In this document: positions 18,876-37,900 of the stretch, piece by piece
Position numbering within the stretch: the stretch's first letter is position 1
Layout: every line of letters begins with the position of its first letter
IMG/VR virus record: IMGVR_UViG_3300049597_000059
Origin: a virus
Lineage: Duplodnaviria > Heunggongvirae > Uroviricota > Caudoviricetes
DNA: 64,000 nucleotides
Direction: 5' to 3' (one strand)
Program-made: the position numbers and the translations under genes
Notes under the pieces: generated by a model
Database searches by the model: none
The model's input: only the letters and a program-made list of their open reading frames with translations
Told to the model about the DNA's origin: nothing

Positions 18876-19799
18876 ATGTCATATTACTACAAGTATAACT
18901 TCATCTCCCCTGAGCCTGTCTATGCGACTGTGAAAGAAGAGTTTAAAAGCTACTTCGATACAGGTGCTGTAGATGATTTGTTATTTCCTACATACCTGGA
19001 TAAATGTCTTAGGAAACTAGGAAGGTCTTCTTATGTTATTAGCGAACAGCTTCTATATATTGAGGACTTTGAAGCTAGGCTTCCTGATAACTTCTTTGCT
19101 GTAAGAGAAGCTTGGTTATGTACATCAATCCCTGGCTATCCTTATCAAACAGCTAATTCATTCTATTCTCAAGCTGCTTCCCAAACAACAATACAGGTGA
19201 GTCCTGTTATTTCTGGAGGAGCTCCTTGTACCAATCTAGAATGTACAACAGGTTGTCCTACGTGCATGCCTGAGCTTATTCAAGCTGTATACAAGACTAA
19301 TCAACAAGTGGCTGTAGAATATCATAGACAATACTTATTAAAACCAGGTAACATCTCTGTTAAAGCACATTGTGATCTACAGTGTGCAAACTTTGGTAGC
19401 TCTTCTGCTGATTCATTTGACATTAGAGATAACAAGTTTGTTACCAATTTTAGAAATGGTGTAGTTCACTTAGTGTTCTATTCTACAGCATATGATGGAG
19501 TGGGTAATGAATTGATTCCAGATAACTATCGTATCAGAGAGTTTGTAGAAGCTTTCATCAAATACAAAATGATAGAAACGCTGACCAATCAAACTAATGA
19601 TGAAACGTTTAACCAACTTCAAACAAAGCTTGCATACTATAAACAACAAGCTGATGAAGCATTCATCATGGCTGATATTGAGGTGAAGAAGCAAGATTCT
19701 TGGGCTAAGCAAAGAAGAATCATACAAGACTTAAATAGATTTAATAGATACGAACTACCAAATAGAAGTTACAGATATGGCTGGAGAAGAAACAACTAA
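18876..19799 (+). CDS. hypothetical Cys-rich structural protein
   Basis: 307 aa; CTNLECTTGCPTCMP cluster. Confidence 0.4.
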   Translation: MSYYYKYNFISPEPVYATVKEEFKSYFDTGAVDDLLFPTYLDKCLRKLGRSSYVISEQLLYIEDFEARLPDNFFAVREAWLCTSIPGYPYQTANSFYSQAASQTTIQVSPVISGGAPCTNLECTTGCPTCMPELIQAVYKTNQQVAVEYHRQYLLKPGNISVKAHCDLQCANFGSSSADSFDIRDNKFVTNFRNGVVHLVFYSTAYDGVGNELIPDNYRIREFVEAFIKYKMIETLTNQTNDETFNQLQTKLAYYKQQADEAFIMADIEVKKQDSWAKQRRIIQDLNRFNRYELPNRSYRYGWRRNN

Positions 19800-22700
19800 T
19801 ATTAAGCAGGAGTACAACAGTGCTATATCTGGCTTAAACATGGATCAATCTGTAAATCAGGTTGAGAAGGGTAAGCTTACGTATGCATTGAATGCTAGTG
19901 TTGAGAACTTTGACTCAGATTCTGTTAACTATCAGAATGAGCCAGGTAATGAGTTATGTCTAAACTTTCCTACAAACTATCATTTAATAGGAACTCATTT
20001 CATTGGTGAACAAAACAAACATATATTCTTTCTAACTAATCCTGAAACAGGAGATAGTCAGATTGGATATATGGATAATAATGATTGCGTATATCGTGTG
20101 TACGTAAGTGCTAAATGTTTAGGCTTTGATATAAAATATCCTATTCTTAAAGCTGTTCATAAGATTACCAATTGCACTACAGAAGTGTATTGGACAGATG
20201 GTCTTAATCCTAGAAGATATATAGACTTAAATAACATTCCCTACAAGTTAGCTCCTAACGCTGATTTATGTGATCCTATTTATACCACTGAGCTTGATTG
20301 TAATCAATTAAACGTTCAGCCTAATTTTAACATTCCTGCATTAGATATAACTGATGTTGTAACTGGTGGTGATCTAACTTCTGGTACATATCAGTTTGCT
20401 ATTCAGTATTGTGATGCTGCTGGTAACCCATACACATCTTTCTACTCTGTTACCAATCCTACACCTATTGCTAATAATAAAATTACTACACCAGAGTTCT
20501 CTTACCAAGTGGGTAAGTCTATTGTAGTTAGTATTAGTAACTTAGATACCACTGGACAATTCCAGTATTTCAATCTTGCTGTAGTAAAGACAATAAATGC
20601 AATAGCTTCTGTTGAGCTTGTTGGTACATATTTTATTGAAGATGACACTAGAACTGTAACTTATACAGGACAGAATGTTACACAAATTCGTCTTGCTATT
20701 GCTGATATATTTGAGAAATATCCATATTATGAGGTAGCTCAAGACTTAACCACTGCCCAAGATATTCTTATCTGGGATAATCTTACTTCTATAGATAGAA
20801 TTAACTATCAATCAATTGCTAGTCAAATTGATCTTAAGTGGGAAACTTATAGAATCCCTAGTACAGAAACCTATGCTGATGAACTAAACGCTACAAATCT
20901 TAGAGGTTATCTAAGAGATGAAGTGTATGCATTTGAGATAGTTTTCTTGCTTAAGAACGGTAAGCAAACAGATGGTTTCCATATTCCTGGTAGAATGATT
21001 ACTGCTAACGAAGGTTCTCAACCAGACGTACCAAGCAGTAATCCTGACTTTATTGGAGAGGGCACAAGTGCACCTTATTGGAAGATTTACAACACAGGTT
21101 CTGTAACAGGATTTTCTCCTGGATACTCAACAAGTCAATCATATAAAGGACCTTATCAATATGGTGAGTTTGCTTACTGGGAATCAACAGACACCTATCC
21201 ATGTAATATAGATGTATGGGGTGATCTTGCTGGTCAACCTATTAGACATCACAAGTTTCCTGATGTTCTTGTAAGTCCTATATACGAAAGTCCTACATAC
21301 ACACTAGGGGCAGGGTTTGCACCAGTGATGCAGAATGATGCTATATTCCCAATGGGTGTACAGATTGATGTTCAACAAGTTGCATACTTGGTATATGCTT
21401 CTAATCTTACACAGGCACAGAAAGAAAGCATTGCAGGATTTAAGATTGTAAGAGGAGACAGAAGTACAAATAGATCCATTGTAGGTAAAGGTATTCTTAG
21501 AAACGTAGGTAAGTATAAGAGAGAAGAAACAGAATATTTCTTTCCTAACTATCCATATAATGATCTTAATAAGGATGAATTCCTTCTTGATAATAACAAT
21601 GCATACCTTGATCAATGTATTACCTATAATGTAATAGCCACTACAACATGTGTTATACAATATACTGATTGTTTTTCAAATACAACACAGATAGAAACAT
21701 TAGTAGTTGGAACTACAAAAAAGATATGTTCTCTTAGCACTCTTTTGGTTATGAGTGGAACAGCTACAATCACTGTGGTTGTCTATAACACATATAATCT
21801 TACTAGTGCTTCAACAACTGTATTCCAATATCAAGATCCATTAACCACTGTATTTAAACAAATCACAGTGACGGGTAATGGTTTACAACAAGTGAATTCA
21901 TTAGTGCTTCCTGTATATTTATCTGGAACAACTAGTTTTAGTATTACAACAGATGCAACAAAGAACTCACTTTGTTATCCTAATAAGTTAGATGCGTTTG
22001 CTACAGATGAGTCTAAATACAGAATGGTATTTAACTCACCTGAAACATCTTTTGGACAACCTTTCTTAGGAACTGTTCTAAAGCTTGAGAACGTTATGTT
22101 TGGTGCAGGTATAGCTCATTTCGTAGAGGTTAAGAAGAATGCTATGTATAAGCTTCTCACAGCAGAAGCTCAACGTGATGCTCTTGAGTCTAGTGAAGAT
22201 ATTGGTGCTATCACACCAACGTTTAATGCATCAGCAATGTTTGCTGCATACCAAGCCTATCTAACTATCTACATAAATGGAATCACTAGAAGAAACTATG
22301 GATACTCATTTAACTCAATAGCTAGCTATGATTACAGTGGAGCTATTGATAATAATCTAGGCATCAAGCAAAGACAATTAGACAATGCTCAATATGTATT
22401 CCCTGGAGTACAGTCTGTAAGTGACTTACATGATTTCAACAACTTCAATAGAGAATCATCTATATATGTAAAGACAGTTGATACTAGAGATGGTTCATCA
22501 GTAATACCTCTACCATTCCCTAATCAGACTCCTAGTCTTTTAGTTGGTGGTATAAGCGGTATCTCTGATACATCAAGATTCACTATATCACAGAAGAACA
22601 ATTGTTCTGTACCTAGTAAGAATGAAGCAATTAATGTAGTTTCTTACTATGGATCATTGAAGAACATCTTTAATAATCAATGGGGTCAGATATACTCTTA

Positions 22701-24549
22701 TGATACAATTGATACAGGTTTCCAAGAAAGCATTGACACTAACAATTTAATGTTCTCTACACCTAAATCAGCAACTGTATTTGGTGGAGATACATTTATT
22801 AACAGATTTGCATTTAAGACCAAGCTTCCATTCTTTATTGATAATAGGGTGAATGGTCTTGATGATAGTGATATATTCTATGATGAGATTGGTAATGTGG
22901 CTTATCCACAATACTGGCACTCAGCTAGATCTGTGTTGCAAGACTACTCTTTAAATAATGGTGCTGGTCCAGTGCTGAAGAATATGATTTCTTATAAGGC
23001 ACATAACTTTGATTGTCCTAATAATCAATCTCCTGCACCTAACCCAGCAGCAAATCCTCCAATAGTAAATCCTAACAGAACATTTTACGATGGTAAGATG
23101 TATATGTTTGCTTACGGTATTCCTTCTTTCTATTGTGAAAGTTCATATAATGTAGACTTACGTCAAGCATTCAATAACTTGGAAGGTGACTTCTACCCAC
23201 ACGTGAGCTCAGGTATTCCTGACAACTGGTTACAAGAGTCTGTAGTTCCTATTGTATTTGATAATACATATTATTATAATGTAACATTTTCAAAGCAAAA
23301 CAGAGAGAATGTGTTCACCCACCTGCCTGCAGATTGGGCTGAGCAACTTTGTTTTACCAAATATCCATTCAGAGCTGTTTATTCAAATCCTCAGGATGTA
23401 TTTGCTGACAATAAGGTGAACAGTTGGTTGATCTATAAGCCTATTTCATTCTTTGATTTCCCTCAAAACTTTGGTGGTCTTGTATCATTAGATGGTATTC
23501 AGAATAAAGCTGTATTAGCTAGATTTGAGAATAAGTCATTGTTATACAATACAATGCTTACAGTTCAAACTAGCAATCCACAAGCTGCTTATTTAGGTAA
23601 TGATACATTATTTAAGAGTGCCCCTCCAATTGACTTTGCTGAAACAGATCTTGGATATGTAGGAGCTCAGAATAAGTTTTTATTGAAGATTCCTCAAGGA
23701 CAGATTACGGTGGATGCTAAGAGAGGACAGGTGTTTTTGATTGAGGGTTTACAGGCTACTGATTTATCAGCATTTGGTTCAGGACTTAATAAGTTCTTTA
23801 CAGACCATCTAGCATTTGAAATCTTACGTTACTATCCAGATGTAAATACAGATAACCATTATGATGGTATTGGCTTACATGGAGTGTTTGATAGTAAGTA
23901 TGACAGGGTGATTATATCTAAACTAGATTACATTCCTAATAGCAAAAATATTAAATATGATGCTACTAATAGAGAATTCTATATAGAAAAAACTCTAGGC
24001 AATAGCGTAGTAAGAACAGTGGTGAGTGTTTATGATTCAGAATACTTCTGTAATAAGTCATGGACTCTTTCATTTAGCATGAACACTAAAAGTTGGATTA
24101 GTTTCCATAGTTACATTCCTAACTTCTACATAGCAGAGAATAACTTCTTCTATTCTGGATTGAATGGTGGATGTGACTTAGAGGCTATTGCTTTCTCTCA
24201 GATTCCTTGCACTACTACCACAACAACCTCAACAACAAAAGATTGTAGAATAATAGGTACAGCAGTTGATCTATGTATAGATTGTACATTGATAGGAATA
24301 GCTTGTATAGATTGTACAATAGTTGGTACGGCTGTAGAACCATGTCCAACTACTACCACTACAACATCTAGTAGCACAAGTACAACAACTAGTACTAGTA
24401 GTAGTACCACAACCACTACAACAACAGCAGTACCTGGACCAACTACTACTACTACAACAACTACTAGTACCACAACTACTACTACTACCGCTACTCCACC
24501 AGCACCAGAGTGTGATTTAGGTGGAACAGCTGCAGAACAATGTCCGTAA
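19777..24549 (+). CDS. large tail/virion structural protein (1590 aa) with C-terminal Cys-repeat and poly-Thr region
   Basis: Long Asn/Thr/Tyr-rich beta-type composition; C-terminal DCRIIGTAVDLCIDCTLIGIACIDCTIVGTAVEPC followed by about 60 residues of Thr/Ser. Confidence 0.45.
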   Translation: MAGEETTNIKQEYNSAISGLNMDQSVNQVEKGKLTYALNASVENFDSDSVNYQNEPGNELCLNFPTNYHLIGTHFIGEQNKHIFFLTNPETGDSQIGYMDNNDCVYRVYVSAKCLGFDIKYPILKAVHKITNCTTEVYWTDGLNPRRYIDLNNIPYKLAPNADLCDPIYTTELDCNQLNVQPNFNIPALDITDVVTGGDLTSGTYQFAIQYCDAAGNPYTSFYSVTNPTPIANNKITTPEFSYQVGKSIVVSISNLDTTGQFQYFNLAVVKTINAIASVELVGTYFIEDDTRTVTYTGQNVTQIRLAIADIFEKYPYYEVAQDLTTAQDILIWDNLTSIDRINYQSIASQIDLKWETYRIPSTETYADELNATNLRGYLRDEVYAFEIVFLLKNGKQTDGFHIPGRMITANEGSQPDVPSSNPDFIGEGTSAPYWKIYNTGSVTGFSPGYSTSQSYKGPYQYGEFAYWESTDTYPCNIDVWGDLAGQPIRHHKFPDVLVSPIYESPTYTLGAGFAPVMQNDAIFPMGVQIDVQQVAYLVYASNLTQAQKESIAGFKIVRGDRSTNRSIVGKGILRNVGKYKREETEYFFPNYPYNDLNKDEFLLDNNNAYLDQCITYNVIATTTCVIQYTDCFSNTTQIETLVVGTTKKICSLSTLLVMSGTATITVVVYNTYNLTSASTTVFQYQDPLTTVFKQITVTGNGLQQVNSLVLPVYLSGTTSFSITTDATKNSLCYPNKLDAFATDESKYRMVFNSPETSFGQPFLGTVLKLENVMFGAGIAHFVEVKKNAMYKLLTAEAQRDALESSEDIGAITPTFNASAMFAAYQAYLTIYINGITRRNYGYSFNSIASYDYSGAIDNNLGIKQRQLDNAQYVFPGVQSVSDLHDFNNFNRESSIYVKTVDTRDGSSVIPLPFPNQTPSLLVGGISGISDTSRFTISQKNNCSVPSKNEAINVVSYYGSLKNIFNNQWGQIYSYDTIDTGFQESIDTNNLMFSTPKSATVFGGDTFINRFAFKTKLPFFIDNRVNGLDDSDIFYDEIGNVAYPQYWHSARSVLQDYSLNNGAGPVLKNMISYKAHNFDCPNNQSPAPNPAANPPIVNPNRTFYDGKMYMFAYGIPSFYCESSYNVDLRQAFNNLEGDFYPHVSSGIPDNWLQESVVPIVFDNTYYYNVTFSKQNRENVFTHLPADWAEQLCFTKYPFRAVYSNPQDVFADNKVNSWLIYKPISFFDFPQNFGGLVSLDGIQNKAVLARFENKSLLYNTMLTVQTSNPQAAYLGNDTLFKSAPPIDFAETDLGYVGAQNKFLLKIPQGQITVDAKRGQVFLIEGLQATDLSAFGSGLNKFFTDHLAFEILRYYPDVNTDNHYDGIGLHGVFDSKYDRVIISKLDYIPNSKNIKYDATNREFYIEKTLGNSVVRTVVSVYDSEYFCNKSWTLSFSMNTKSWISFHSYIPNFYIAENNFFYSGLNGGCDLEAIAFSQIPCTTTTTTSTTKDCRIIGTAVDLCIDCTLIGIACIDCTIVGTAVEPCPTTTTTTSSSTSTTTSTSSSTTTTTTTAVPGPTTTTTTTTSTTTTTTTATPPAPECDLGGTAAEQCP

Positions 24550-24560
24550 TTAATTAAGAT

Positions 24561-25427
24561 ATGTCTAAAGTAATAACAATAAGATTAACAAAGGCTGGCA
24601 TTAGAACTGGACCGTTTAAGATTTCTGATAACTACGGAAATGTCTTAGGAACTAATATTCCTAAGAGCCAAGTTATTTCTGGAATCACCTACTCAGTTAG
24701 TGATGCTGTTACGGTTATTATTATTGAATCTATAGGAAAGTGTAGGACAAGGTTACAAATGTCTATAGAGCAACTGTGTGTTGCAGATGTAGCAGCTATT
24801 GAGTTTGTACCTACAAACACCCCATCTTTATGGAGACATTTAACTAACACAACAATTTACAATACGTTCTACGGAAACATAGAACCTTATATTATAGAGT
24901 ATCCATTTGCCTATCAGTATTATGATGAGATCTTACAGAATGTAAAAGATTACACAAAGGCATACAGATACCTTCCTATACCAGATGGTGTGTTCAATGA
25001 TAACTCTAAGATAGAAACAAACACAGTTTATTTCAACAAAGCTATCTTATACAATGGACAACAGTCTTCTGGTGTACTAGAGTTGGTTCCTAAACCAATC
25101 AACAACTTAAAGGAATACATGAAGTATCCTATATATAACGTTGAGAGTAAGACAATTACGTTTACTAAATCAGATAATTTTTATCAATACAATACATTTT
25201 GGTCATTAGTTAAAGATAAATCCGTACCTTTGTTTCTAACAGGTTGTGACTCATTGTCTATAGATAAGGTTGTAAATCAACCAAATATGGATTATGGAAA
25301 GAGATCATTTAAGAAAGAACCTCTACGTGCGAAGGATTTAAAGGTGAGACACGTCCTAGATAATAGATCAGATGCCCATTTGATAAGTCAATTCATCATT
25401 ACACCATCTCAAATTTCTTACAAATAA
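24561..25427 (+). CDS. tail-associated protein with TGPF beta-domain
   Basis: N-terminus MSKVITIRLTKAGIRTGPFKISDNYG paralogous to the 15701 N-domain. Confidence 0.4.
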   Translation: MSKVITIRLTKAGIRTGPFKISDNYGNVLGTNIPKSQVISGITYSVSDAVTVIIIESIGKCRTRLQMSIEQLCVADVAAIEFVPTNTPSLWRHLTNTTIYNTFYGNIEPYIIEYPFAYQYYDEILQNVKDYTKAYRYLPIPDGVFNDNSKIETNTVYFNKAILYNGQQSSGVLELVPKPINNLKEYMKYPIYNVESKTITFTKSDNFYQYNTFWSLVKDKSVPLFLTGCDSLSIDKVVNQPNMDYGKRSFKKEPLRAKDLKVRHVLDNRSDAHLISQFIITPSQISYK

Positions 25428-28400
25428 TGGCTAAGTGGTTAGATAAATATGAACAAGGGGGATTGGTCTTAAAACAAAAGACCGATAACTATGGTAAGAA
25501 GCCCAATCCTAATGATGTACAAGCATCTGTAGGTCCTGACTTTGTAGGTCTTGGTTATGATACAACAGGTAGAAACTATTCTCCTGCATGGGGTGGACAG
25601 TTTGAGGATGGTGGATATGTAGCTCAAAAAGGTAAATCTGTTCCTACAATGACAGATAGTCTTGCTCTGTATAACAATGCTAATAAAGTACTTAATTATT
25701 ATAAAGGTAAAAAATACCGAAATCTTTCTTCTGGTGAAAGATATGGAAAGAAGAATTATTATAAAGAAAAAAATAAAGAATCACTAGAACAGTTCATCCG
25801 CAGAAACAAAATGAATGCTGTTTTGTTTTCTAGAGGAACAGGTTCTGAAATGACATCTATTCCAATAGATTCATATTACAAAAGACTTGATGGCAATAGG
25901 TATTTTCAAAGAGAAGGTGCCAGTGCAATATTAGATATGAGAGCTCCAATGCAGTTGTTTGATGATAGAATCACTCCTACAATGCTTAATTTTTATAGAA
26001 ATATTGACAAGAACGATCCTTTAACTGATGATTATGTTTCTATTTTTTCTTATGATCCTATATTAGTTAAACCTGTAAGTATGCTTACTCCAGAGGAAAA
26101 AGCTACTAGATTAAAAAGATACGGAAAGGAAAGTGGTTTAATTGATAAAAACGTAAAACTGTCTACATCTACTGAGAAATCAAAAACTGAACCAGAAAAG
26201 AAAAAGACTCCAGTAACTAAAAAATCTGAAGAAACCAAAATAGAAGAAACTAAACCAGCACCATATACTCCTACAGGAAGTAAGAAGTACATAGTAAATG
26301 GAATAGAGGTTAGTGAAGAAGACTTCTTAGGTACAGGTAATACAACTGGTGGTAGTAAAAGAATTATATATAGTACACCAAAACTAAAAACACAAAAGGT
26401 TCTTCGTTTAGATGGAACTCCTGAAACAGATCCAGAGAAGATTCGTAAGGCTATGCGTGCACAGGAAAAGGATGGTGATATGGCTATGGGTGGTAGCTTA
26501 CCAGGTTCTGTAGGATTCACGTACGCACGTGTAGCTGGTAGTGCTCCTAGCAATGGTAAGTATGCTAAGAAGACAAAAGCTTCTGCACAGAATGGTAAGG
26601 AGATGAAGTTCTACCAAGAAGGCTTGGATTTCAAACCTAACAGTATTGCTCAGGATGGTGCTATTGTAGACCCAATGGGACAATGGGCACATCCAGGAGA
26701 AGTAACTATAATACCAGGAACAGACATAACAATGGAAGGGGTAGATTATCCCGTACTAGGAATATCTGATACAGGGGATACACAGATGATGTACCCTGGA
26801 GAAGACTATGATTTTGATGGTGACTATGTTACAGAGTATCCAATAATGAAAGATGGTGGTTGGTTAAGTAAATTTGATACAGCTCAAAAAGGTAAGACTA
26901 TTCCTAAACCTGAGCTTACTTCATCTAATATACCATATACACCAATAACCTTATCTACAAACGTTAAAGCTGGAACAAAAAAACCAACTGTTACACTTTC
27001 ATCTCAAGAGGAAATATTAGATGAACAACAGCGAAAGAAGAACAAAAATAAACCCGTTGTTGAAAAGAAGTATGAAAATATAGAGACTGTTAAACAAGAT
27101 AATAGAACATCTAGAGAGAAAGAAATTGCTCAACAAGAGTTGTTAAAGCTTATGATGCAAGAAGCTCAAGGAGCTTCTCCTTTTGCTCAAACATTAAGTT
27201 CTTTCACACCAACAGGATATAATCCAGAGGCTGGTAAGATAGCCGCTGAAAATATAGGACAAATGACTCCTATGATGGGAGCTACTAGATTGTTTAACAC
27301 TGTAAGAGATCCTGAGAATAACCCTTATGGTATTGGTCAAGGGAATGGATTTCTAGCAAATACATTAGGTACACTAGGATTAATTGGAGATGCTTTAGAT
27401 GTAGGTGTTGTAACGGCACCTGGTGTAAAAGTTGCAGGTAAATACCTTACCGAACAAACACCTTTAAAAAATACCTATAAGTTAAATCCTTTTGCTTTCA
27501 AACCTACAGAAGGAATGATGTATAGAGGACTTGGGGTAGAGGGAATGGAAGATGCTCTTGCATCAGGTGTATTTAGAGCTAAGCAAGATATACCACCTTC
27601 TATGGTAGGTAACTTTGATATGTCTAAACGATTTGACAAAGCTTACTTTAGTCCAAAGTTTGATGTAGCAGATCAGTATGGACAGGGATATATTGCTGAG
27701 GTACCAAGAACAGCTTCTGATTGGGGTAAGAGATATGGTAAAAAAGAATGGAGTCAAATAGCTCAAAGAGATATACCTACAACTGAAGGTAAGATATTAC
27801 AGAAAGATTGGTTAAAAGGATATAAAGAAGTTCCTCAACAAAGTCCTGATTTAGGATCAGTCTTTCAACTCAATACTAAAGGAGCAGTTCCCCCACCTTT
27901 ACCAGAACCAAAGCTTTCAATAGCTCCTCGTGGTAACTATCTAGAAAGTGAACTAACTAAAGGAAATAAAATTAGTTTGAACGATGTTGATAAACTTGGT
28001 AAGAAGGAAATAGATTGGTTGCAAAGTTATGAGTATTTTAAAAGAAGATCCGCAGCAACAGGTGAAAGTGCATCTGAGATACAAAAAGATGTAGATGAGA
28101 TTGTTAAGCGTTGGGGAAATTTATCTGTAAGTGCAGCTAATACAGGAAAGGATGCGGCTGGTTTTTACGGTAGGGGTAAAAACAGAATAGTATTAAGTGA
28201 TAAGTTAAAAAGAGAAGAAGCCCTATCAGTTTTAGACCATGAGGTTAAACATGCTCTTTCACAAATGGGGGGCCTCGAGGGTTCCAAAGGATATAAAAAA
28301 TATCCAACTACTAAGGTAGATACTTGGTTAAATAGAACTCTTGGTCTTAAAAATGCACATTATTATGCTGAACCTTGGGAACAGCAAGTTAGAGGTCTGC

Positions 28401-28792
28401 GTTTATTAGACTTCATAGAAAAAACACAAGGGATTCCTAGAGGCACACCGTTATCAATGGAAGATATAACTCAGTTTGCAAGAAATGTTTCTCCTTCATC
28501 TCCTTCAAAAGAAATTATGGAACTTTTTTCCAAAGACTACAATGATGTAACTAGTCAGCTTTTTAAAATGAAGGATGCAGACAAACAACTTAAGTTTGTT
28601 CCAAGTAATATAAAAAAATTAAAGTCTCCTTTTCAATATGAACAAAAAGGAGAACTAAGAAAAAATATACTAGATTGGCTTAATAGAACATACGCTGTAC
28701 CTGTAGGTGTAGGTATAGGTGCTGGTGCACTTGGATCTGATGAAGAGATGCCACAACAAAAAGATGGTGGTTGGTTAACCAAATATAAATAA
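25427..28792 (+). CDS. large virion cargo/internal protein (1121 aa) with HExxH motif and repeated DGG[WY]…AQKGK motifs
   Basis: LDHEVKHAL (zincin-like) at 28238-28252; internal PGSVGFTYARVA motif identical to the MCP N-terminus; Lys-rich low-complexity linker. Confidence 0.45.
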   Translation: MAKWLDKYEQGGLVLKQKTDNYGKKPNPNDVQASVGPDFVGLGYDTTGRNYSPAWGGQFEDGGYVAQKGKSVPTMTDSLALYNNANKVLNYYKGKKYRNLSSGERYGKKNYYKEKNKESLEQFIRRNKMNAVLFSRGTGSEMTSIPIDSYYKRLDGNRYFQREGASAILDMRAPMQLFDDRITPTMLNFYRNIDKNDPLTDDYVSIFSYDPILVKPVSMLTPEEKATRLKRYGKESGLIDKNVKLSTSTEKSKTEPEKKKTPVTKKSEETKIEETKPAPYTPTGSKKYIVNGIEVSEEDFLGTGNTTGGSKRIIYSTPKLKTQKVLRLDGTPETDPEKIRKAMRAQEKDGDMAMGGSLPGSVGFTYARVAGSAPSNGKYAKKTKASAQNGKEMKFYQEGLDFKPNSIAQDGAIVDPMGQWAHPGEVTIIPGTDITMEGVDYPVLGISDTGDTQMMYPGEDYDFDGDYVTEYPIMKDGGWLSKFDTAQKGKTIPKPELTSSNIPYTPITLSTNVKAGTKKPTVTLSSQEEILDEQQRKKNKNKPVVEKKYENIETVKQDNRTSREKEIAQQELLKLMMQEAQGASPFAQTLSSFTPTGYNPEAGKIAAENIGQMTPMMGATRLFNTVRDPENNPYGIGQGNGFLANTLGTLGLIGDALDVGVVTAPGVKVAGKYLTEQTPLKNTYKLNPFAFKPTEGMMYRGLGVEGMEDALASGVFRAKQDIPPSMVGNFDMSKRFDKAYFSPKFDVADQYGQGYIAEVPRTASDWGKRYGKKEWSQIAQRDIPTTEGKILQKDWLKGYKEVPQQSPDLGSVFQLNTKGAVPPPLPEPKLSIAPRGNYLESELTKGNKISLNDVDKLGKKEIDWLQSYEYFKRRSAATGESASEIQKDVDEIVKRWGNLSVSAANTGKDAAGFYGRGKNRIVLSDKLKREEALSVLDHEVKHALSQMGGLEGSKGYKKYPTTKVDTWLNRTLGLKNAHYYAEPWEQQVRGLRLLDFIEKTQGIPRGTPLSMEDITQFARNVSPSSPSKEIMELFSKDYNDVTSQLFKMKDADKQLKFVPSNIKKLKSPFQYEQKGELRKNILDWLNRTYAVPVGVGIGAGALGSDEEMPQQKDGGWLTKYK

Positions 28793-28810: not shown

Positions 28811-31800
28811 ATGAAAGATCAAATCCTAAAGATCGCAAAAGTTAAATCTGAAAAGGAATTCTATAAGAAGTATCCTACAGAAGAAGCATTCATGAAAGCT
28901 CATGGTAAAGCATTTAAAAAAGCTGCTATGGGTAAGACTATGGTTGCTAAACAGTTAACACAACTAACTGACTTTGCTAATCCTCCACAGGCTGAAGTTG
29001 GTACATATATAGGTGGTGACACTTATAAAACTGCCAATTTTAAATATGGTGATTTTGCTGATGAAGCAGATGCTAGTGTTACAGGTACTCCTGCTCCAAT
29101 GAGAGTACAGAATGTTCAACCTCCTGCAGCTGGTGCACAACAAAGTCCTTATGCTTTTAATGCAGGAACTACAGGAATGAGAAATATAAATTGGGAGGAT
29201 GTAGGTGAAGATGTACTTCCACAACTAATGCAAATGCAAGGAGGTGGTATTATTTCTGCACAAGGAGGAGTAAGAATTCCTGCTTTTGCATCAACTATAC
29301 CTACATCAACTCCTACTAAAGCACCTGCTGCTAACATGACCAATATTGGAAACATGTTAGGTAACCAACAGTTTCAACAAAATGCAACTAATCGATTTGC
29401 AGGTTTAGGAACACAACCAACACCATCTTTAGGTAGTCAGATTGGTTCTGGTGTGATAAACAATGCTGGTAATATCCTACAGGGTATTAATATGCTTAGG
29501 GATGAAAAAAGACAAAAACAAACGGCAAAACAATCAGCTGCATTAACTGGTGTAGTTGGTAAGGCTGCTGGTACAAGATCAGAAATAAGCAAACGTAAAT
29601 ACGTTAGACCTGAGGATATGTCTGTTCAACCAGGAGAGTTAGGTAACCCTTATGGTGAAGGAACTACTCCTTTAGTAATGCAAGATGGTGGTGGTGTTGG
29701 AGGTAATCCAACTGAGATTCAAAATACATTTGCTCCAAATGTAATTTATACAAATCTTGAATATGAACCACTAAATGATAGTAAGGTTAAACAATACAAG
29801 AAAGGTGGTAAATTAAAGAAGGCTCAAATTGGTGCAGGTATTGCTGGTCAATTAGGTGGTGGTTTAGGTAGTATTGTTGGTGGTGGTAGATTTAATCAAG
29901 CTGGCGGAGCTGGTAAGATTGGTTCTACACTCGGTGGTATTGCAGGAAGTGTTATCCCTGGTGTAGGTACAGTTATTGGATCTGCTGTTGGTGGATTAAT
30001 TGGTGGTGCTATTGGTGGTAAGAGTGCAAAAGAAACAGCAAGACTTCAAGAAGAATCACAAAATAATATTATGAGCTCAGCATTACAACAAGGTGCTCAA
30101 TCAATCCAATCTAACTATAGTGGATTCATGGAAGATGGTGGATGGGTAAGTAATGATTGGCAGCCACAAGTTATTGCTAGTTTTGGCGAATATAAGATGA
30201 AAGATCTTCTTAAACCTCCTCATGATGCACAGATGTTACGTGCTGGTGGTCATTTAAAAGAATACACTCCTCCTAGTGAAAGAGCTATGGAAACATATGA
30301 TATGGGTGGTGAACTCGAAACACATTGGGGTGGATACATGGAACCTATGTCTCAAAACCCTTATCTACCAGATGGTGGTGTTACAGTGATGCCTAGAGGA
30401 CAATCTCACGCAGAGAGTGATGGTAAAGGTAACACAGGTATTGGTATTACATTTGGTGACAATCCTGTAGAAGTAGAAAGAGGTGAGCCTATGGTTAAGC
30501 TAAAAGATGGTGGTACAGGGGAAGATAATCTAGTGGTATTTGGTAACATGAAGATACCTAAGTATGCTTTAGACGAGTTTGAAAAAAAGGCTAAGGGTAA
30601 GAAGTTTAAAACTTATGCCACTGACCTAACTAAGACAGAAGCTAAACAAACTAAGTTAATAGATAAGTCAACTAAAAAAATAGATGATCTAGAAGTGTTA
30701 ACACCATTTGATAGATTAACGGCAGACTCTTTACAAGCAAATCTTATTGGTGCTAACATGAAACTAAAAGATATTGCTGACAAGAAACAAAAGCTCGGTG
30801 ACTTACAACAGTCTATACATTCCACTGCTCCTGAGTTTGGATATGAGGATGTAGATAAATTCAATAATGATGTTATAAAGGGAAGTGTTAAAATTAAGAA
30901 AGGAAAGGTTGAGTCTGATGTACCTATGGCTCAAGATGGTATTGTAGCAGCACTTAATGCTCCAACTCCTTTAAACATACTTAACAACGCTTCTTCTTCT
31001 TGGTACGAAACTCCTTCATTAATGAGCTTAAGAAGACCATCATCTCGTGTAGCTAGTCCTATGCAAAAATTAATAAGAAGTATTGTACCTCAACAACCAG
31101 TTGCTAACTTCCCATTAAGACCAGGGTTTATGTACAATCCTCCTGATTATTTATATCAAAACGTTCCAGCTGTTAATTACAATGTTGGTGCAGGATTTCC
31201 TACAGTGTCAGCACTTAATGCTCCTTCTGCTTTAAATATGTCTAATGCTGGTTCTCTTGGTTTTCAACCAACTGGAAGTATGTTACCAGCTCCTATTGGT
31301 CCTGATGAAGAAGATATTAAAAAAGATTTTATACTTACTAGAATTGGTGATTTTATAAATAAAAACCTTGGTGATAATTCTACATTAGCTTCTGAGTTAT
31401 TGCCTTATTTAAGACCTACAAATCAAATGGATCTAGATCCTACACAAATAGCTGGAGAAATGGATGCATTAGCTGATAATCAGGTGGATCCAGTGTTTGC
31501 TCAAACTCTACAACCTAGACTAGGTTCACCAATTGATATATCATTACAGAGTTCACTTAATGCCAATCAGGCAGATTACAATGCTCTTATTAGAAACGTA
31601 GGATATAATCCTGCTGCTCAGTCTTTGTTAGCTGCTCAAAAGTATGCTGCTAACTCTGAGATTTTAGGAAAAGAATCTCAGATGAATAAAGAAGAGAAGT
31701 CAAGAGTGTTTGATGCAAATAGACAATTATTGAATGAGTATGACCTTAAGAATGCAGTTATTAGTGACACTCAACAAGTGAGACAATCACAAGCTAGATC

Positions 31801-32104
31801 TAACACTAAAGCCCAAAGAAGAGAAGCACTTAACTCTATTAGTCAGAAGTACCTTGAGAACAGAAGAGAGAACAGAACATTGGGTATATATGAAAATGAA
31901 TACAAATTCAGATATGACAATCAGGGTAGACTTATTAATATGAATCCTTTAGCTAGATTTACTATTCCAACTGCATCAGGCAAACCTTCAGGAATAAGCA
32001 ATACAGATGTTCTTCCTGTGTATGACAAGGATAATAAAGAGGTGGTTGCGTACAGACAGAAGGCAAAAAATGGTAACATTGTCAAAGCTATTAAAAATCT
32101 CTAA
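28811..32104 (+). CDS. large virion cargo/ejection protein (1097 aa) with glycine-zipper hydrophobic segment
   Basis: About 65-aa run of Gly with small hydrophobics (GAGIAGQLGGGLGSIVGGG…GGLIGGAIGG) at 29827-30030; DGG[WV] motifs. Confidence 0.45.
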   Translation: MKDQILKIAKVKSEKEFYKKYPTEEAFMKAHGKAFKKAAMGKTMVAKQLTQLTDFANPPQAEVGTYIGGDTYKTANFKYGDFADEADASVTGTPAPMRVQNVQPPAAGAQQSPYAFNAGTTGMRNINWEDVGEDVLPQLMQMQGGGIISAQGGVRIPAFASTIPTSTPTKAPAANMTNIGNMLGNQQFQQNATNRFAGLGTQPTPSLGSQIGSGVINNAGNILQGINMLRDEKRQKQTAKQSAALTGVVGKAAGTRSEISKRKYVRPEDMSVQPGELGNPYGEGTTPLVMQDGGGVGGNPTEIQNTFAPNVIYTNLEYEPLNDSKVKQYKKGGKLKKAQIGAGIAGQLGGGLGSIVGGGRFNQAGGAGKIGSTLGGIAGSVIPGVGTVIGSAVGGLIGGAIGGKSAKETARLQEESQNNIMSSALQQGAQSIQSNYSGFMEDGGWVSNDWQPQVIASFGEYKMKDLLKPPHDAQMLRAGGHLKEYTPPSERAMETYDMGGELETHWGGYMEPMSQNPYLPDGGVTVMPRGQSHAESDGKGNTGIGITFGDNPVEVERGEPMVKLKDGGTGEDNLVVFGNMKIPKYALDEFEKKAKGKKFKTYATDLTKTEAKQTKLIDKSTKKIDDLEVLTPFDRLTADSLQANLIGANMKLKDIADKKQKLGDLQQSIHSTAPEFGYEDVDKFNNDVIKGSVKIKKGKVESDVPMAQDGIVAALNAPTPLNILNNASSSWYETPSLMSLRRPSSRVASPMQKLIRSIVPQQPVANFPLRPGFMYNPPDYLYQNVPAVNYNVGAGFPTVSALNAPSALNMSNAGSLGFQPTGSMLPAPIGPDEEDIKKDFILTRIGDFINKNLGDNSTLASELLPYLRPTNQMDLDPTQIAGEMDALADNQVDPVFAQTLQPRLGSPIDISLQSSLNANQADYNALIRNVGYNPAAQSLLAAQKYAANSEILGKESQMNKEEKSRVFDANRQLLNEYDLKNAVISDTQQVRQSQARSNTKAQRREALNSISQKYLENRRENRTLGIYENEYKFRYDNQGRLINMNPLARFTIPTASGKPSGISNTDVLPVYDKDNKEVVAYRQKAKNGNIVKAIKNL

Positions 32105-32190: not shown

Positions 32191-34890
32191 ATGGCATCAT
32201 TTACCGACCAAATAACGAAATTTAATCCCTACGTACAACAATTGCCTGTTGAGGCAATGGTTCAGGTTGGCATGCGTAGGCAAGCTAAATATGATGAGGG
32301 TGTAGAAAAGATCCAAAGCTACATAGATAATATAGCTGGTTTGGATGTAATCAAGCCTATTCATAAAGAATACATCCAATCTAAACTTAATGAGCTAGGG
32401 GGTAAACTTAAAACGGTAGCTGCTGGAGACTTCTCTAACCAACAGTTAGTTAATTCTATTGGCGGTATGACCACTCAGATAATCAAAGACCCTACCGTTC
32501 AGAATGCTGTATATTCTACCCAAAGAGTTAGAAAGGTACAAGGCGATATGGAGGCTGCTAAGAAAGCAGGTAAGAGTGGTATTGAGAATGAGGTTTGGGC
32601 AAATGATGAAATTAGCTCTTGGATAAATGATGGTAATGCACAAACCACTTTCAATGGTGAGTTTGTAGAATATACAGACCTTGACAAACAATTAAGAGAC
32701 CTTGCTAGTAAACTTAAGGAAGCTGAAAACTCTGTAGATATTCCATTTAAGACAAATGCTGATGGTCGTATATTATACTACAGCCCTGTTAAGGATGCTA
32801 AAGGTAAAGTTATTAGAATAGATGAATCCTTGGATCCAAGTAAGGGTGTTCCTGAAAAAGATGATGCTATGAAACGCATCAAGACAAAAGGACTAGGAGC
32901 TCAAAAGATATTAAACAACTTCTACGATAGTTTAAGTGAAAATGATAAGCGACAGTTAAAGATAACAGGCAACTACCATTATCGAGGAGCTACAAAGGAT
33001 ACATTTAAAAATGATATAGTTAATACTTACACCACTGCTAAGCAAATGCTTTCTGAACAAGTGGTTGATTGGGCAGTTAAACTACAGACTGATAACAAGT
33101 TAACAGCTGCTGAAAGATCAGACATTGAAGCAAACATCACTACAGCTAATAAAAAGTTAACTGATGGTACGTTTGAAAATCAAATAGCTAAAAAGACTTC
33201 TGAGATAGATAACATAAAAGATTTAACTCAGTATAAGTATGCTTTATATAGTGAAAAGTATTTAACCAACCTTGCAAAAGATTTAGCAAACGAAAGTAAA
33301 ATTGTAGAAATAATGACCAATCCATATCAACAAGCAGATATGGAAAAGCAAAAGCTACAGTTCCAAGTTAATAAAGCTCAACAAGACTATCAACAGTGGG
33401 CAGCAACTCATGCTCTTAAGATAGCAGAGTTTGACTTTGAGAAGGACAAGGAAACATATAAGAGAATTCAAGAAGAAGCTAAGAAAAGATTATTACAACC
33501 TGTCACTACACCTGGTGGTTTAGGAACAGATGTTAAACTTCCTACTCTAACTGATTTAAGTAATGACATTAAATCAACAGAGACAGCTATAAAAACATTA
33601 GATGCTACATATGCTAGTCAGTTGTTTCCTGAGTTATCAAATGATAAAACAATAAAAACTACAACTGTTAGAGATGGAAAAGTTGTAACTGAATATATAT
33701 CACAAAGACAGGAAGCATTAAACAAACTAAACTCTGATTACAACATTGATCCAAAAAATATTAAAGGTAGTGGTAAAATAGAATATCTTGAAAAAAGAAG
33801 AGCATTTAGTATAGACCTTGCTCAAAAGGGTAACTTATTTTTAACTGTTAGAAACGGTTCTCAACAGTTTGATAATGCAATTAAAGATGCTTTAAAAACT
33901 GAACAAGGTATTAATCTTCCAAATGGTCAACAACTATATAGTGCAGAAGAACTTTTTAATATAGAAAATACTAGTAAAAAATATCTAATGTCTTCTGGTA
34001 CAACGGCTACTAGAGGAAAACTTAGATTTGATTCTCAAGGGTTTTTGAATGAATATAAAGGAACTAAGTATGAGCCTATTGCAAATGCTTATGTTAAACG
34101 TATGAATAATCAACCTTTAACAACTTCTGAACAAACTATGTATAATAAAGCTCTTTCTATTGGTTCAAAATATCAAAATGTTTTAAGTGATGTAGTTAGT
34201 AAAAAACTTCAATATGAATCAAATGTATTAGCTAAGAGCATGCCAGAAAGACAAGTGGTTGTTGGTACAATCAATATGGGTGATGATGTTATTAAAGCAC
34301 GTATGGAAAATTTAATAGGTAACAAGTTTTTTGAATATGAACAAAACGGTCAAGTTGATGTTCAAAACAAAGATCTATTTAAGCCTGAAACAATTGCAGA
34401 ATTACAAAAAGATCCACAAACAAAATATACAATAGAAAAGAAATATGATGGTAGTGCTAATGTAATTATGAATAATGGAAAGAAGAAACAAGTTGTTCCT
34501 ATGAACTCTAATGAGTTTTCTGCTTTCTATCCTGACTATGCTGCAAACAGTCCTGCAGACAACTTTAAATATGCAGTGATGTCTTCTCCTAATCGCACTA
34601 CAAATTTAAGTGGTAAAGAAGATGCTGTTAATGCGTATATGACAGGACATAGTATTGGAGGCCTTGCTGGAACTCCTTTAGCTGGAAAAACAAGACTTGA
34701 TGTAATAGGTAGTCCAAATAATACAGGTGGTCCAAATGACAAGTATGATGTGTTAATGTACTTTAATAACAATGGTGTTTGGGAAAAAGCAATATTAAAT
34801 CAAAAGGGATACGTAACTGAAGATGGTGTATTAGGAATTCTTAATAACATAGGACCTGCTACAGTTCAAAGTTTATTAAAACAAAAATAA
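32191..34890 (+). CDS. large virion protein (899 aa), hypothetical
   Basis: Long Lys/Asn-rich ORF in the cargo block. Confidence 0.4.
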   Translation: MASFTDQITKFNPYVQQLPVEAMVQVGMRRQAKYDEGVEKIQSYIDNIAGLDVIKPIHKEYIQSKLNELGGKLKTVAAGDFSNQQLVNSIGGMTTQIIKDPTVQNAVYSTQRVRKVQGDMEAAKKAGKSGIENEVWANDEISSWINDGNAQTTFNGEFVEYTDLDKQLRDLASKLKEAENSVDIPFKTNADGRILYYSPVKDAKGKVIRIDESLDPSKGVPEKDDAMKRIKTKGLGAQKILNNFYDSLSENDKRQLKITGNYHYRGATKDTFKNDIVNTYTTAKQMLSEQVVDWAVKLQTDNKLTAAERSDIEANITTANKKLTDGTFENQIAKKTSEIDNIKDLTQYKYALYSEKYLTNLAKDLANESKIVEIMTNPYQQADMEKQKLQFQVNKAQQDYQQWAATHALKIAEFDFEKDKETYKRIQEEAKKRLLQPVTTPGGLGTDVKLPTLTDLSNDIKSTETAIKTLDATYASQLFPELSNDKTIKTTTVRDGKVVTEYISQRQEALNKLNSDYNIDPKNIKGSGKIEYLEKRRAFSIDLAQKGNLFLTVRNGSQQFDNAIKDALKTEQGINLPNGQQLYSAEELFNIENTSKKYLMSSGTTATRGKLRFDSQGFLNEYKGTKYEPIANAYVKRMNNQPLTTSEQTMYNKALSIGSKYQNVLSDVVSKKLQYESNVLAKSMPERQVVVGTINMGDDVIKARMENLIGNKFFEYEQNGQVDVQNKDLFKPETIAELQKDPQTKYTIEKKYDGSANVIMNNGKKKQVVPMNSNEFSAFYPDYAANSPADNFKYAVMSSPNRTTNLSGKEDAVNAYMTGHSIGGLAGTPLAGKTRLDVIGSPNNTGGPNDKYDVLMYFNNNGVWEKAILNQKGYVTEDGVLGILNNIGPATVQSLLKQK

Positions 34891-34902: not shown

Positions 34903-37900
34903 ATGGCAATTTTTGATAAAGAGCTTATTGACAATACTTCTAATAGAGATTATGGTAAACCTGAAATGGATCTGCGTTCTCCAGAGACCAGAAAGGTTGA
35001 TGTGAGTCTAGGAGGTTTTGAAGACTTTGCTATTGGAGGTCCTAGTAGATCTTCTGGTTTAACTATTGACCAATTATCAGACTTTTCACGTGTTCCTACA
35101 AATCAAAATACATTTAACTCTCCTGTACAAATGATTCCTAGAAGTGAACTTCTAGCCAATCAACGTTACAATATATATGAAAGAAATAGAGATTTAGAAA
35201 ACGTAGCTGGACTACAACAAAGTTGGGCAGATCAATTAGCTAATGGTGTTGTTAAATTTGCAGCAATTGGCGGTGGTACATTCCTTCAAAGTTTTGGTAC
35301 TATACCAAACACAGTATCTGCATTAAAGACAGGTAAGTTATCTGAGTTATCTGGAGGACCTGATGGTTATGAGTCTAAGGTGGGTGACTGGTTAACGAAC
35401 ATTGAAGATATATTTCCTAACTATTACACTAGACGAGAAAAAGAAAGTCCATTCTTAGCAGCCCTTCCTTTTGCTCCAGGATCTGCAAACTTCTGGGGAG
35501 ATAAGATTATTAAGAACCTAGGTTTTACAGCAGGTGCTATTGGTGGAGCAGTTGTTCAAGATTTAGCAATTGGTGCTATTACAGGAGGTATTGGTGAAAT
35601 TCCATTAGTTGCTGCTCAAATTGGTAAAGCTTCTTTGTATTTAAATAAATTATTTACAGGAACCAATCGCTTAGATGAAGTTCTTAATTTAGCTACTCAA
35701 CTTGGTAAAACAGAAAAGCAAATACTAAACATCAAACGTTTAGGTGAAGTTGCTGCTGCAACAAAGGTGACAGACGGTGCTAGATATGCACTAAACATAT
35801 ACGGTTCTGCTAGAACAGAAGCTGCTATTGAAGCTAGAGATGGTTACAAACAAGTTAGAGAAAACTTAATCAATCAATATAAGTTAGAAAACCTTGGTGA
35901 AGAACCTACAGGAGCAGATGCTAAACAGATAGAAGATTTAGCAACAAATGCTATGAATACCAGATTTGGTATTAACATGGCACTACTCACTGTGTCCAAT
36001 GCTGTACAGTTTGGTAACTTATTCAAATCATTTAGCAATGCTTCATCTAGTGGCATCTCTGGTTCATTAACTAGAGAGCTAGAAGATATTGGTAAGTTTG
36101 GATTGAAAGAAGGTAGTATAGATGTATTTGAATCTAAGGCTGCTAAAACTCTTCGTGGTAAAATTTGGGAATCTGTAAAACCTAAAGTAGCTAACATCTT
36201 TACAGAAGGTGTTTATGAAGAGGGTGGACAATTTGCTGCTGAAAGAGGTACGTTTGATTACTACACTAGAAAATACAAAAACCTTAACGACCCTAATAAT
36301 AAACAAAACTGGAACGAATTAAATGAGGTTATTAACTCTACTAATAAAGGGTTAGCTGATCAATACGGTTCAGAAGAGGGTCTTGAAAATATGTTTGTTG
36401 GTGCATTATCTGCTTTAATTAGCGGTGGCATCATGAGCAGAATTGATAGTGTTAAAGGTAAAGGTGCTGATGCTAGATTACAGTCTACCATCAATATGCT
36501 TAATAGATATGGTATCACTGGAATGTTACAAGATAACTACACTGATACACTAAACTCAGCTGCCATAGCTAAAGAAATGGATACAGCTGCTAAGTCTGGT
36601 AACATCTTTAAGTATAAGAACCTTAAGAAAGACATGTTCTTTAACTTTGTAAACTCACGCATTCCTTCTGGTATGCATGACGTTACACTTGAGCAATTGA
36701 ACATGTTAAAAGATTTATCCAAAGAAGAGTTTGAGAAAACCTTTGGAATGGACTTCAACACTTCTAATAAGAATACAGTTGATGCGTATGTAGACAATTT
36801 AATCTCAAATGCAAATAAGATTAAGTCTACAGTTGATTCATTAGACAGTACGTTTAAGAATCCTTTTGCAAAAATTACAGATCCTAAAACTCCTGAAGAG
36901 GCAGTTGCTGCTAATAATCATGATGTCTTTAATGAATGGAAGACTAACTTAGCATACTATGCTATGGTTGCTCCAGATGCAAATGATAGACTATCTTCTA
37001 TTTCTCAAACTGTTGCTGGTGTTAATCCATTGATTAACAATGACTTATTAGGCAAGCTTACCGATCCAACTAGCTTAAGAGAATTAAGTAGTAACTATGA
37101 AGAGAGAGCTAATCAGTTAAACAGAACAATCACTGAGTTTACAAGTCCTGAAGATAAGAAGGCTATAAAAGCACAGGTTAAGGCTTTGCGTACAAGTGCA
37201 GAGAGAATCAACCTTGCTATCAATAATAGAGATTTAGACATGAAGACGTTTAACTCTCTATTAAACTTTGAGTTAAATAACCTAGATAGTACCAAGGATG
37301 ATGTTGTGGGTATGGAGCGTGCTTCTGAGTTATATGGATATGGTGTTGATATTAACAAGCTTATTGGATTAAAGAGATCTGCTTCTAGCATACTTGATGA
37401 ATTAGCAAGTGAATCAGGTCTTGAGAAGTTCTTTAAAGAAGCTAGTGAAATAGCTTCTGAGGAACCACCAACCACTGTTCCTGGAGAAGAAGAAGCTCCA
37501 GCAGCTGAAGTTACTCCTGCTGTAGTTCCTCAATATACTAATGTAAAGGGTAAGAGAGAGAATTTAGAATTAAACAGAGAATACGAAGTTGCTAAGCTTA
37601 GACCTTCTAAGGTTAATAGATTAGCAGAAGACAGATGGCAAGTTATCTCTCCTGATGGAACTTTTGAAATCTATCCTACGAAGGAGAAAGCTCAAGAGAT
37701 TGCTAAAGACTTAGATGAAGAGTTTGCTAGCTTAGCTAAGGTGAAGATCGTTGCATTAAATGAAGATGGTACAGCTAAGGTGGAAGATAAAGATGGTAAC
37801 ATCTATAATATTGACACTAGAAAGCTATCAGGATTTAATAAGGTTGAAAGTGAACAAGAGAAGTTACAAAAGGTTGCAGATCAATTAGGTAGACAACAAC

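Follow-up and report, generated by a model that had tools for sequence, protein, structure and literature searches.

The subject of this report is a short amino acid motif that occurs twice in a stretch of viral DNA of 64,000 nucleotides (IMG/VR virus record IMGVR_UViG_3300049597_000059; Duplodnaviria, Heunggongvirae, Uroviricota, Caudoviricetes), which in its whole length is called the window here and comprises the structural half of the genome of a crAss-like podophage that has not been cultured. One copy is located in the major capsid protein (MCP), in its N-terminal arm (N-arm), and the other lies in the interior of a polymorphic, effector-like protein of cargo type with 1121 amino acids (aa). 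The analysis shows that the motif is real and is under protein-level purifying selection in both genes. As to its function, we tentatively favour, a little short of calling it probable, N-arm mimicry: the cargo copy would imitate the N-arm of the coat and, by binding the scaffold or the inside of the coat, would serve as a tag for docking and encapsidation, and the motif would not be a cleavage site. Coordinates are those of the window and refer to its + strand unless stated otherwise.

The MCP copy of the motif is IPGLTGFTYARVA (8582-8620, residues 6-18), and the cargo copy is LPGSVGFTYARVA (26498-26536, residues 358-370). The open reading frame (ORF) of the MCP starts with MAIQTIPGLTGFTYARVASM, and in the 1121-aa ORF the motif stands in the context ...MAMGGSLPGSVGFTYARVAGSAP. 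The octapeptide GFTYARVA is identical in all 8 of 8 residues between MCP residues 11-18 (8597-8620) and residues 363-370 of the 1121-aa protein (26513-26536). Both octapeptides are preceded by [IL]PGxx, and the extended [IL]PGxxGFTYARVA is identical at 10/13 positions. A preliminary description of this DNA had already pointed to the octapeptide and its flanking PG, and the match is borne out to the base. The same description held it to be very unlikely by chance, and this judgement is confirmed by two results. In 200 residue-shuffled sets of the 37 plus-strand proteins (20,820 aa), the mean number of 8-mers shared between proteins was 0.035. In addition, a profile hidden Markov model (HMM) built from 92 cargo blocks, with no MCP sequences among them, returned the MCP N-terminus as its second-best match (E 1e-4), the next match being at E 4. 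GFTYARVA is the only inter-protein 8-mer shared outside low-complexity poly-Thr/Ser tracts. A search of the other virion proteins for motif-like sites had been proposed in the same description; with loose regular expressions, a third copy was not found in any of the six frames of the window, and the motif is confined there to the MCP and the 1121-aa protein. On the minus strand, two ORFs (26050-26553, 167 aa, and 26498-26692, 64 aa) run antisense to the cargo gene over the motif region and are probably spurious.

The two 24-nt stretches that encode GFTYARVA differ synonymously in 7 of 8 codons, and the cargo motif drifts while the MCP motif remains constant in the same genomes; therefore a recent DNA duplication or gene conversion is rejected as the source of the match. 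In the ten genomes with both genes, the MCP invariably reads PGLTGFTYARVA, and the cargo reads GFTYARV in four, GFTYART in three, GMMYART in two, and GFMYART in one. The perfect 8/8 identity is the upper end of a range, and the common core at the family level is PG-x-x-G-[FM]-[TM]-Y-A-R. Residues P, G, G, Y, and R are invariant across 38 nucleotide variants of the cargo motif, and the 42 nucleotide versions of the MCP motif in the fetched loci yield only 7 peptides. The two copies belong to one motif class, as both allow T or M at the same position and keep the five residues P, G, G, Y, and R unchanged, without residue-by-residue tracking. A scan for PGxxGFMYAR returned 14 MCP N-termini and 33 cargo blocks in 47 contigs, eight of them longer than 100 kb, and never both in one contig; a scan for PGxxGFSYGR gave 3 cargo matches and no MCP.

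The MCP (517 aa; 8567-10120) is identified as the crassvirus type both by sequence and by fold. It matches Pfam Crass_capsid (PF23898, E 4.8e-28, residues 25-509) and the PHROG major head protein, and its AlphaFold2 (AF2) model, made from a 40-sequence alignment with a mean predicted local distance difference test score (pLDDT) of 75.6, matches PhicrAss001 gp32 chains 7qof, 7qoh, and 7qoi with Foldseek E values of 1e-24 to 1e-26 and template modelling (TM) scores of 0.62-0.67. In this model, residues 1-46 have a pLDDT below 50, and the remainder adopts the HK97-type MCP fold. The intact N-terminal peptide is (M)AIQTIPGLTGFTYAR.

Conservation of the motif in related phages, a check proposed in the preliminary description, is found in both proteins. 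Among 120 MCP clusters at 82-94% identity, the N-terminus follows the pattern M-x3-5-[IL]PG-x-[TS]-G-F-[TMLNQH]-Y-[AGSK]-R-[VIT]. Homologues down to about 45% identity retain PGxxG-x4-R, in the forms PGxxG[FYLI]xx[AGK]R and PG-x-x-G-hydrophobic-x3-R; examples of divergent N-termini are LPGFTGLYAGR, APGFTGIKVGR, VPGYSGHVVQR, and IPGLSGFSYGR (P0126), and another divergent lineage has LPGATGYLYKR (P0192). MCPs at 25-30% identity, and that of PhicrAss001, have a shorter N-terminus without the motif; the motif is therefore a clade-specific N-terminal extension of the N-arm. The PhicrAss001 MCP is the only solved crassvirus MCP. In its mature capsid, chain 7qof_B is modelled for 503/504 residues and the other chains for 451-485; therefore, this MCP is not trimmed at its N-terminus, and the N-arm is retained but is ordered only at some quasi-equivalent positions. 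Owing to this partial order, N-arm sockets are unoccupied at the remaining positions, among them those around the portal. A comparison of the gp32 N-terminus with PhicrAss001 gp45, gp46, gp31, and gp36 revealed no common motif.

The 1121-aa protein (25427-28792) is encoded between the muzzle gene and a gene for C1-type cargo. It has no PHROG match, and its homologues number 1537. The counts given below refer to the best 120 of these (P0271-P0390), which cover from 7 to 100% of the query at 34-100% identity, in a mosaic pattern. Payload families of Pfam found among the homologues are ADP-ribosyltransferase (PF03496), PF18760, Amidase_2 (PF01510), SLT (lytic transglycosylase, PF01464), and His_Phos_1 (PF00300). 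The motif is always part of a larger block, MGG...APSNGKYAKKTKASAQNG, and never occurs apart from it. Exactly one such block is present in 114/120 homologues, at positions from residue 17 to residue 1017, with variable modules on both sides. Its consensus is x-MGG-[SAG]-[LIM]-PG-[AST]-[VT]-G-[FMH]-[TM]-YAR-[TV]-x3-4-PSNG[KP]YAKKTKASAQNG. From the homologue alignments, the whole conserved adaptor block of the window protein is A-MGG-SLPGSVGFTYARVAGSAPSNGKYAKKTKASAQNG (26483-26596, residues 353-390), in which MGG, PG, GF.YAR, NG.YAKKT, and ASAQNG are invariant or almost so, and the flanks switch between alternative modules. The switch points immediately follow ASAQNG or SIAQDG, or coincide with other joints of the type xGG. 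In an AF2 model of residues 335-520, the block is a coil with a pLDDT of about 48 and is followed by a small beta module, ...ITMEGVDYPVLGISDTGD... (26705-26869, residues about 427-481), whose strands occupy model residues 93-138 with a pLDDT of 70-76. The small beta module is also found in the C1-type cargo of a sister lineage (BLASTP against residues 222-275 of the 1192-aa cargo of L209, E 3.6e-7). The segment that follows the motif had suggested a likeness to ribosomal protein L27 (PDB profile match, E 0.94; Pfam Ribosomal_L27, E 0.032 in one of 14 members). This was rejected at an hhalign probability of 3%, the L27 query sequences being approximate.

Mosaic modules combined with conserved short blocks show the protein to be a string of payloads joined by linear peptides, the motif being part of the most universal of these peptides. 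The protein shows the trait of polymorphic toxins and effectors, in which the part for delivery is conserved and the enzymatic domains vary and recombine. It also shows two traits of capsid targeting and cargo loading: a short peptide is conserved while the rest of the cargo is variable or unrelated, and the peptide is predicted by the model to lie in a flexible, exposed segment. One of the payload modules is weakly zincin-like, with the sequence HEVKH (HExxH) at 28238-28252 and a match to Pfam DUF6782 (residues 905-943) that falls below the cutoff (E 1.6e-4). HExxH is present in 57/120 homologues, in several unrelated modules, and therefore represents a payload and not a core function.

A second conserved short motif of the cargo, (GG)WLxKY, was also observed. 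It is found at the extreme N-terminus (WLDKY, 25436-25450, residues 4-8; many homologues begin MAKWLDKYEQGG), internally (GGWLSKF, 26855-26875, residues 477-483), and in the last eight residues (GGWLTKYK, 28766-28789, residues 1114-1121), and GGWLxKY[KNQ] ends about 112/120 homologues. Module boundaries are marked by xGG or QDG. This motif could be another docking peptide, a processing site, or a recombination joint.

The origin of the two copies was clarified in the sister lineage, whose MCP (P0121) is 63% identical and has the N-terminus PGFTGLYAGR, and which was followed from the MCP to the cargo genes through the intermediate genes. Directly 3′ of its muzzle gene, this lineage encodes a 1192-aa protein that is orthologous to the 1097-aa ORF of the window and has in common with the 1121-aa protein the small beta module alone. 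In L209, the one genome of the lineage that was examined, the 1192-aa cargo gave no significant match to the N-terminus of its own MCP, and a scan of viral contigs for PGxxGLYAGR returned sister-lineage MCP N-termini only. The presence of the MCP motif without a cargo copy in the sister lineage shows that the MCP motif is older and that the cargo copy is a derived mimic.

A related pattern was encountered outside this phage group. A scan for [hydrophobic]PGxxGFSYGR returned 62 proteins similar to the lambda tail protein gpL (Pfam Phage_tail_L, about 720 aa) in unrelated siphophage contigs (L226-L297, e.g., L226:4161-6320). All 62 end with ...NPRFGGFPGTDGFSYGR plus 3-5 residues, and the next gene in L226, the one locus looked at, is a Prok-JAB (gpK-like) gene. 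Their C-termini carry the same GG-x-PG-xx-GF-S/T-Y-G/A-R pattern as the cargo block, placed there at the end of the protein.

In the proposed mechanism, the MCP starts with a flexible N-arm that bears the clade-specific motif PG-x-x-G-F-T/M-Y-A-R. During procapsid assembly, the disordered peptide of the cargo would bind the partner that normally receives the coat N-arm. This partner would most likely be the scaffolding protein encoded 5′ of the MCP gene or, on the inside of the coat lattice, the socket for the N-arm, and one motif copy per cargo molecule would be enough for enclosure, whichever payload is attached. A candidate partner is a putative scaffolding protein of 420 aa (7270-8532), presumptively assigned, which lies directly 5′ of the MCP gene, like gp31 of PhicrAss001. 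Its N-terminal half is acidic and of low complexity, its C-terminal half is helical, and it is 35% identical to the sister-lineage ORF at the equivalent position; it has no Pfam match and, in a loose pattern scan, does not carry the shared motif. In the procapsid of Staphylococcus phage 80alpha, the scaffold binds the coat N-arm (PMC5744158). A portable tag would be expected to occur once, wherever in the chain, and to be flanked by variable modules, as is seen in the cargo; both copies lie in regions that AF2 models as disordered. A capsid-incorporation signal and a scaffold docking motif were among the functions raised in the preliminary description; these fit better than the others, in that the motif is single, free in position, disordered, and older in the MCP. 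In a more specific form, which is possible but rather doubtful, the N-arm copy would be a self-mimicry loading tag that plugs sockets on the scaffold, or on those coat subunits from which the N-arm has been displaced, such as the ones around the portal vertex. In this form, the invariant MGG just 5′ of the motif might also be processed, so that the motif would come to lie close to a new N-terminus, like that of the coat protein.

Several points speak against a tag. The packaging of the 1121-aa protein in the virion, its binding and binding partner, and its role in encapsidation are what we infer, and its status as cargo rests on gene position and one module shared with C1. At the resolution available, MCP and cargo do not covary, as motif positions 7 (T/M) and 6 (F/M) vary independently in the same genomes, and therefore co-evolution does not demonstrate a common partner. 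The motif is located in an N-terminal extension of about 10 residues that is absent from PhicrAss001 and could equally be a propeptide. Moreover, PhicrAss001 has no comparable motif in MCP and cargo, so the mechanism would be clade-specific. The search for a protease covered 64 kb of a genome of about 114 kb.

The last points bear directly on the main rival explanation, which we regard as unlikely: that the motif is a recognition or cleavage site, at or beside GFTYAR, of a shared protease that is host-encoded or encoded by the phage outside the window. The model for this is the T4 gp21 sites or the host Prp site; about 16 N-terminal residues would be removed from the MCP, and the cargo would be split into N- and C-terminal fragments. 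There is a precedent in 80alpha, where coat and scaffolding proteins share an N-terminal motif with L27 that is cut by the host protease Prp and is also found on non-homologous proteins of other phages (PMC5744158). The place of the MCP motif, in an extension missing from PhicrAss001 and more distant crass MCPs, is propeptide-like; both copies lie in accessible disordered segments, and the invariant MGG just 5′ of the motif and the GG at other module joints may be additional processing sites. However, no protease family was recognized in any ORF of the window, including the interval from portal to MCP where the head protease is usually encoded. The only peptidase-like matches in the window are the Peptidase_S74 chaperone of the tail fibre and the sub-threshold zincin payload, and no cognate protease of the kind of T4 gp21, phiKZ gp175, or HK97 gp4 was recognized among its ORFs. 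The zincin module of the cargo itself was rejected as the maturation enzyme because it is present in only 57/120 homologues. The recurrence across several head proteins, including the scaffold, that a cleavage site would lead one to expect is not seen, the putative scaffold being without the motif, and each cargo has one site despite its many module junctions. The MCP N-terminus of PhicrAss001 is retained in the mature capsid (503/504 residues modelled), the PhicrAss001 paper reports no proteolysis (PMC10172136), and the conserved cargo block, with about 38 residues, is far longer than a usual cleavage determinant. The proposal of the preliminary description that a prohead protease removes an MCP propeptide and processes the cargo at the same site thus finds no support: no protease family in the window, no motif in the scaffold, and one site per cargo. 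The docking tag is favoured over cleavage because of the single copy, its free position, the disorder, the block of about 38 residues, and the mimicry of a coat segment that binds scaffold in other phages whose scaffold is a separate protein.

Two further explanations are less probable still. According to one of them, which appears improbable, both copies would bind a third factor, different from scaffold, coat, and protease, such as a common folding or assembly chaperone, or the portal, which would nucleate the coat and anchor the cargo. For 80alpha, it has been proposed that the N-terminal peptide shared by coat and scaffolding proteins lets both associate with one chaperone (PMC5744158), and in PhicrAss001 short ordered segments fix the C1 protein, whose chain is otherwise disordered, to the portal wing and inside the tail barrel (PMC10172136); the disordered context of the motif in both proteins agrees with this. 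Conversely, no candidate chaperone was identified in the window, and the portal is touched by only 10 of about 535 coat subunits, a weak reason for strong conservation of every N-arm. A correspondence of the block to the tail-barrel-bound segment of gp45 is also unsupported. That segment (residues 214-245, which begins FGSGAIGYEFDNRY after AYGG) resembles the block by eye, and the equivalence was rejected because the BLAST comparison is not significant and the block HMM gives no gp45 match. The other explanation, marginally the least probable, is common origin or convergence without common function. A 5′ piece of the MCP gene would have been captured by the cargo gene and each copy conserved for a local reason, the coat copy serving N-arm packing and the cargo adaptor copy something unrelated. 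This would agree with the independent drift of the cargo motif in genomes where the MCP motif does not follow it, with its confinement to the larger block MGG...APSNGKYAKKTKASAQNG, and with the unrelated gpL-like tail proteins ending in GG-F-PG-TD-GFSYGR, which suggest that the pattern can arise elsewhere. Against it, both copies tolerate the same narrow substitutions (T/M at position 7, with P, G, G, Y, and R invariant), their similarity is significant at the profile level (HMM E 1e-4), and the matching proteins are exactly the two kinds that need to meet inside the procapsid.

Short peptides that bring proteins into a capsid are known from several systems. The internal proteins of T4, which are ejected, are sent into the assembling prohead by a short capsid targeting sequence that can carry foreign payloads. 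In T4, this sequence stands at the N-terminus and binds to the scaffolding core; the prohead protease then cuts it off at LxE sites, which are also present in coat and scaffold. In contrast, the window encodes no recognizable protease, its putative scaffold lacks the motif, and the tag would copy the N-arm of the coat itself. Encapsulin cargo-loading peptides are disordered segments of about 10-20 residues, usually terminal, on unrelated cargo proteins, and they dock on the luminal face of an HK97-fold shell; encapsulin shells are among the structural neighbours of the MCP model in Foldseek. To our knowledge, none of these peptides is a copy of a shell segment, whereas the peptide described here is internal and mimics the N-arm of the shell protein, its docking being proposed only.

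The system of 80alpha and Prp is similar in that a short conserved peptide near the coat N-terminus is repeated on a non-homologous virion protein of the same phage and the coat N-arm also binds scaffold (PMC5744158). In that phage, every substrate has the motif at its N-terminus, where it imitates a host protein and is demonstrably cleaved by a host protease, whereas the second copy is internal here (residue 17-1017) and is not known to have a host protein as its model. The 1121-aa protein resembles C1 (gp45) and C2 (gp46) of PhicrAss001 in its position directly 3′ of the muzzle gene, its largely disordered chain, its short docking segments (ordered in PhicrAss001), and its GG-rich joints (PMC10172136); it differs in that it is not detectably homologous to gp45 and in that the PhicrAss001 MCP shares no motif with gp45 or gp46. 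As in MuF and other polymorphic toxins of phages, a conserved trafficking or packaging part is combined with variable enzymatic or toxin domains that are swapped by recombination (PMC5576092, PMC3482391). In MuF toxins, a folded head-morphogenesis domain at the N-terminus precedes a toxin at the C-terminus, whereas here the payloads flank a short linear adaptor in a crAss-like phage of lytic type. The motif is real, has a function, and does not belong to a system that has been described before; its kin are the T4 targeting sequence, the encapsulin peptides, and the motif of 80alpha and Prp. What is new is a proposed tag that is a copy of the N-arm of the coat itself, lies inside the protein at no fixed position, and serves a polymorphic family of crAss-like cargo proteins.

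All long ORFs of the window are on the + strand, and together they constitute the virion module of a crAss-like podophage. The gene order of the window is that of PhicrAss001 gp19-gp47, the muzzle and cargo part corresponding to gp44-gp47. Among isolated phages there is no close relative, the best tblastn match being only 26% identical; in metagenomes, nearly identical MCPs number in the hundreds, and the contigs that encode them reach about 114-125 kb. The module includes a terminase (2001-4031) and a P22-like portal (4031-6616). The ring proteins R3/4, R2, and R1 are encoded 3′ of the MCP, then the muzzle protein, then a run of very large ORFs; ring proteins, portal, MCP, and muzzle share one strand. 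The muzzle protein (1590 aa; 19777-24549; Pfam crAss_MUZ, E 4e-30) marks the start of the cargo gene block. The gene for the 1121-aa protein occupies a cargo position, directly 3′ of the muzzle gene and inside the virion module. It is followed by the 1097-aa C1-type cargo (28811-32104), which is without the motif and is gp45-like by transitive similarity: it matches the 1192-aa cargo of L209 by BLASTP (E 2e-26 and 1e-12), and the latter matches PhicrAss001 gp45 at E 6e-4. The next ORF (899 aa; 32191-34890) matches the L209 ORF located 3′ of the C1-type gene (E 6e-38). Since the 1097-aa ORF is of C1 type and the 899-aa ORF corresponds to the next L209 gene, the 1121-aa gene is an addition that the clade of the window has between its muzzle and C1 genes. 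The 1121-aa protein itself did not prove to be a homologue of the gp45 family (best BLASTP against gp45, E 0.86; no match with the block HMM).

Other genes of the module were also recorded. Between the portal and the putative scaffold lies a 176-aa protein with an SPFH/Band 7 domain (6619-7149; Pfam E 9e-27), an unusual location for this domain. Between tail genes and ring protein R2, a 416-aa ORF (16419-17669) matches the PHROG "DNA repair exonuclease" (E 3e-45) and is kept in the sister lineage (L105, 417 aa). Long poly-Thr/Ser tracts are present in at least six ORFs (12007-13146; 15293-15688; 15701-16237; 19777-24549, at aa about 1476-1570; 60350-60829; 60876-61223), the carriers being the ORF at the position of the PhicrAss001 auxiliary capsid gene and the muzzle, both at the C-terminus, and four small ORFs. 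The ORFs of 4562 aa (34903-48591) and 1647 aa (48606-53549) have no Pfam match at E <1e-3 and, by position only, are candidate equivalents of the crassvirus virion cargo related to RNA polymerase. A 2221-aa protein (53688-60353), in which nine stretches match the collagen triple helix (Pfam E 1e-58) and the C-terminus weakly matches the Peptidase_S74 intramolecular chaperone, is probably a tail fibre. At the end of the structural block, a sulfotransferase gene (62159-62977; Pfam E 3e-20) stands beside an adenosine 5′-phosphosulfate (APS) kinase-like gene (62974-63411; E 1e-8).

The structure of PhicrAss001 shows where some of the cargo is located and not the route by which it is loaded. If the motif were a cleavage site instead of a tag, proteolytic maturation of the head would be evidenced for the first time among crassviruses. 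If it is a tag, it would provide a concrete and testable loading signal for the large cargo of crAss-like phages, would explain how one gene slot can hold many payloads (ADP-ribosyltransferases, zincins, and cell-wall hydrolases), and could serve for packaging foreign proteins into HK97-fold capsids. Should loading proceed by self-mimicry in particular, a payload fused on either side of the motif would be packaged and later ejected, so that phage capsids of the HK97 fold would have an encapsidation signal that is portable and not tied to a position, and this abundant freshwater clade of crAss-like phages would be able to swap its injected effectors freely.

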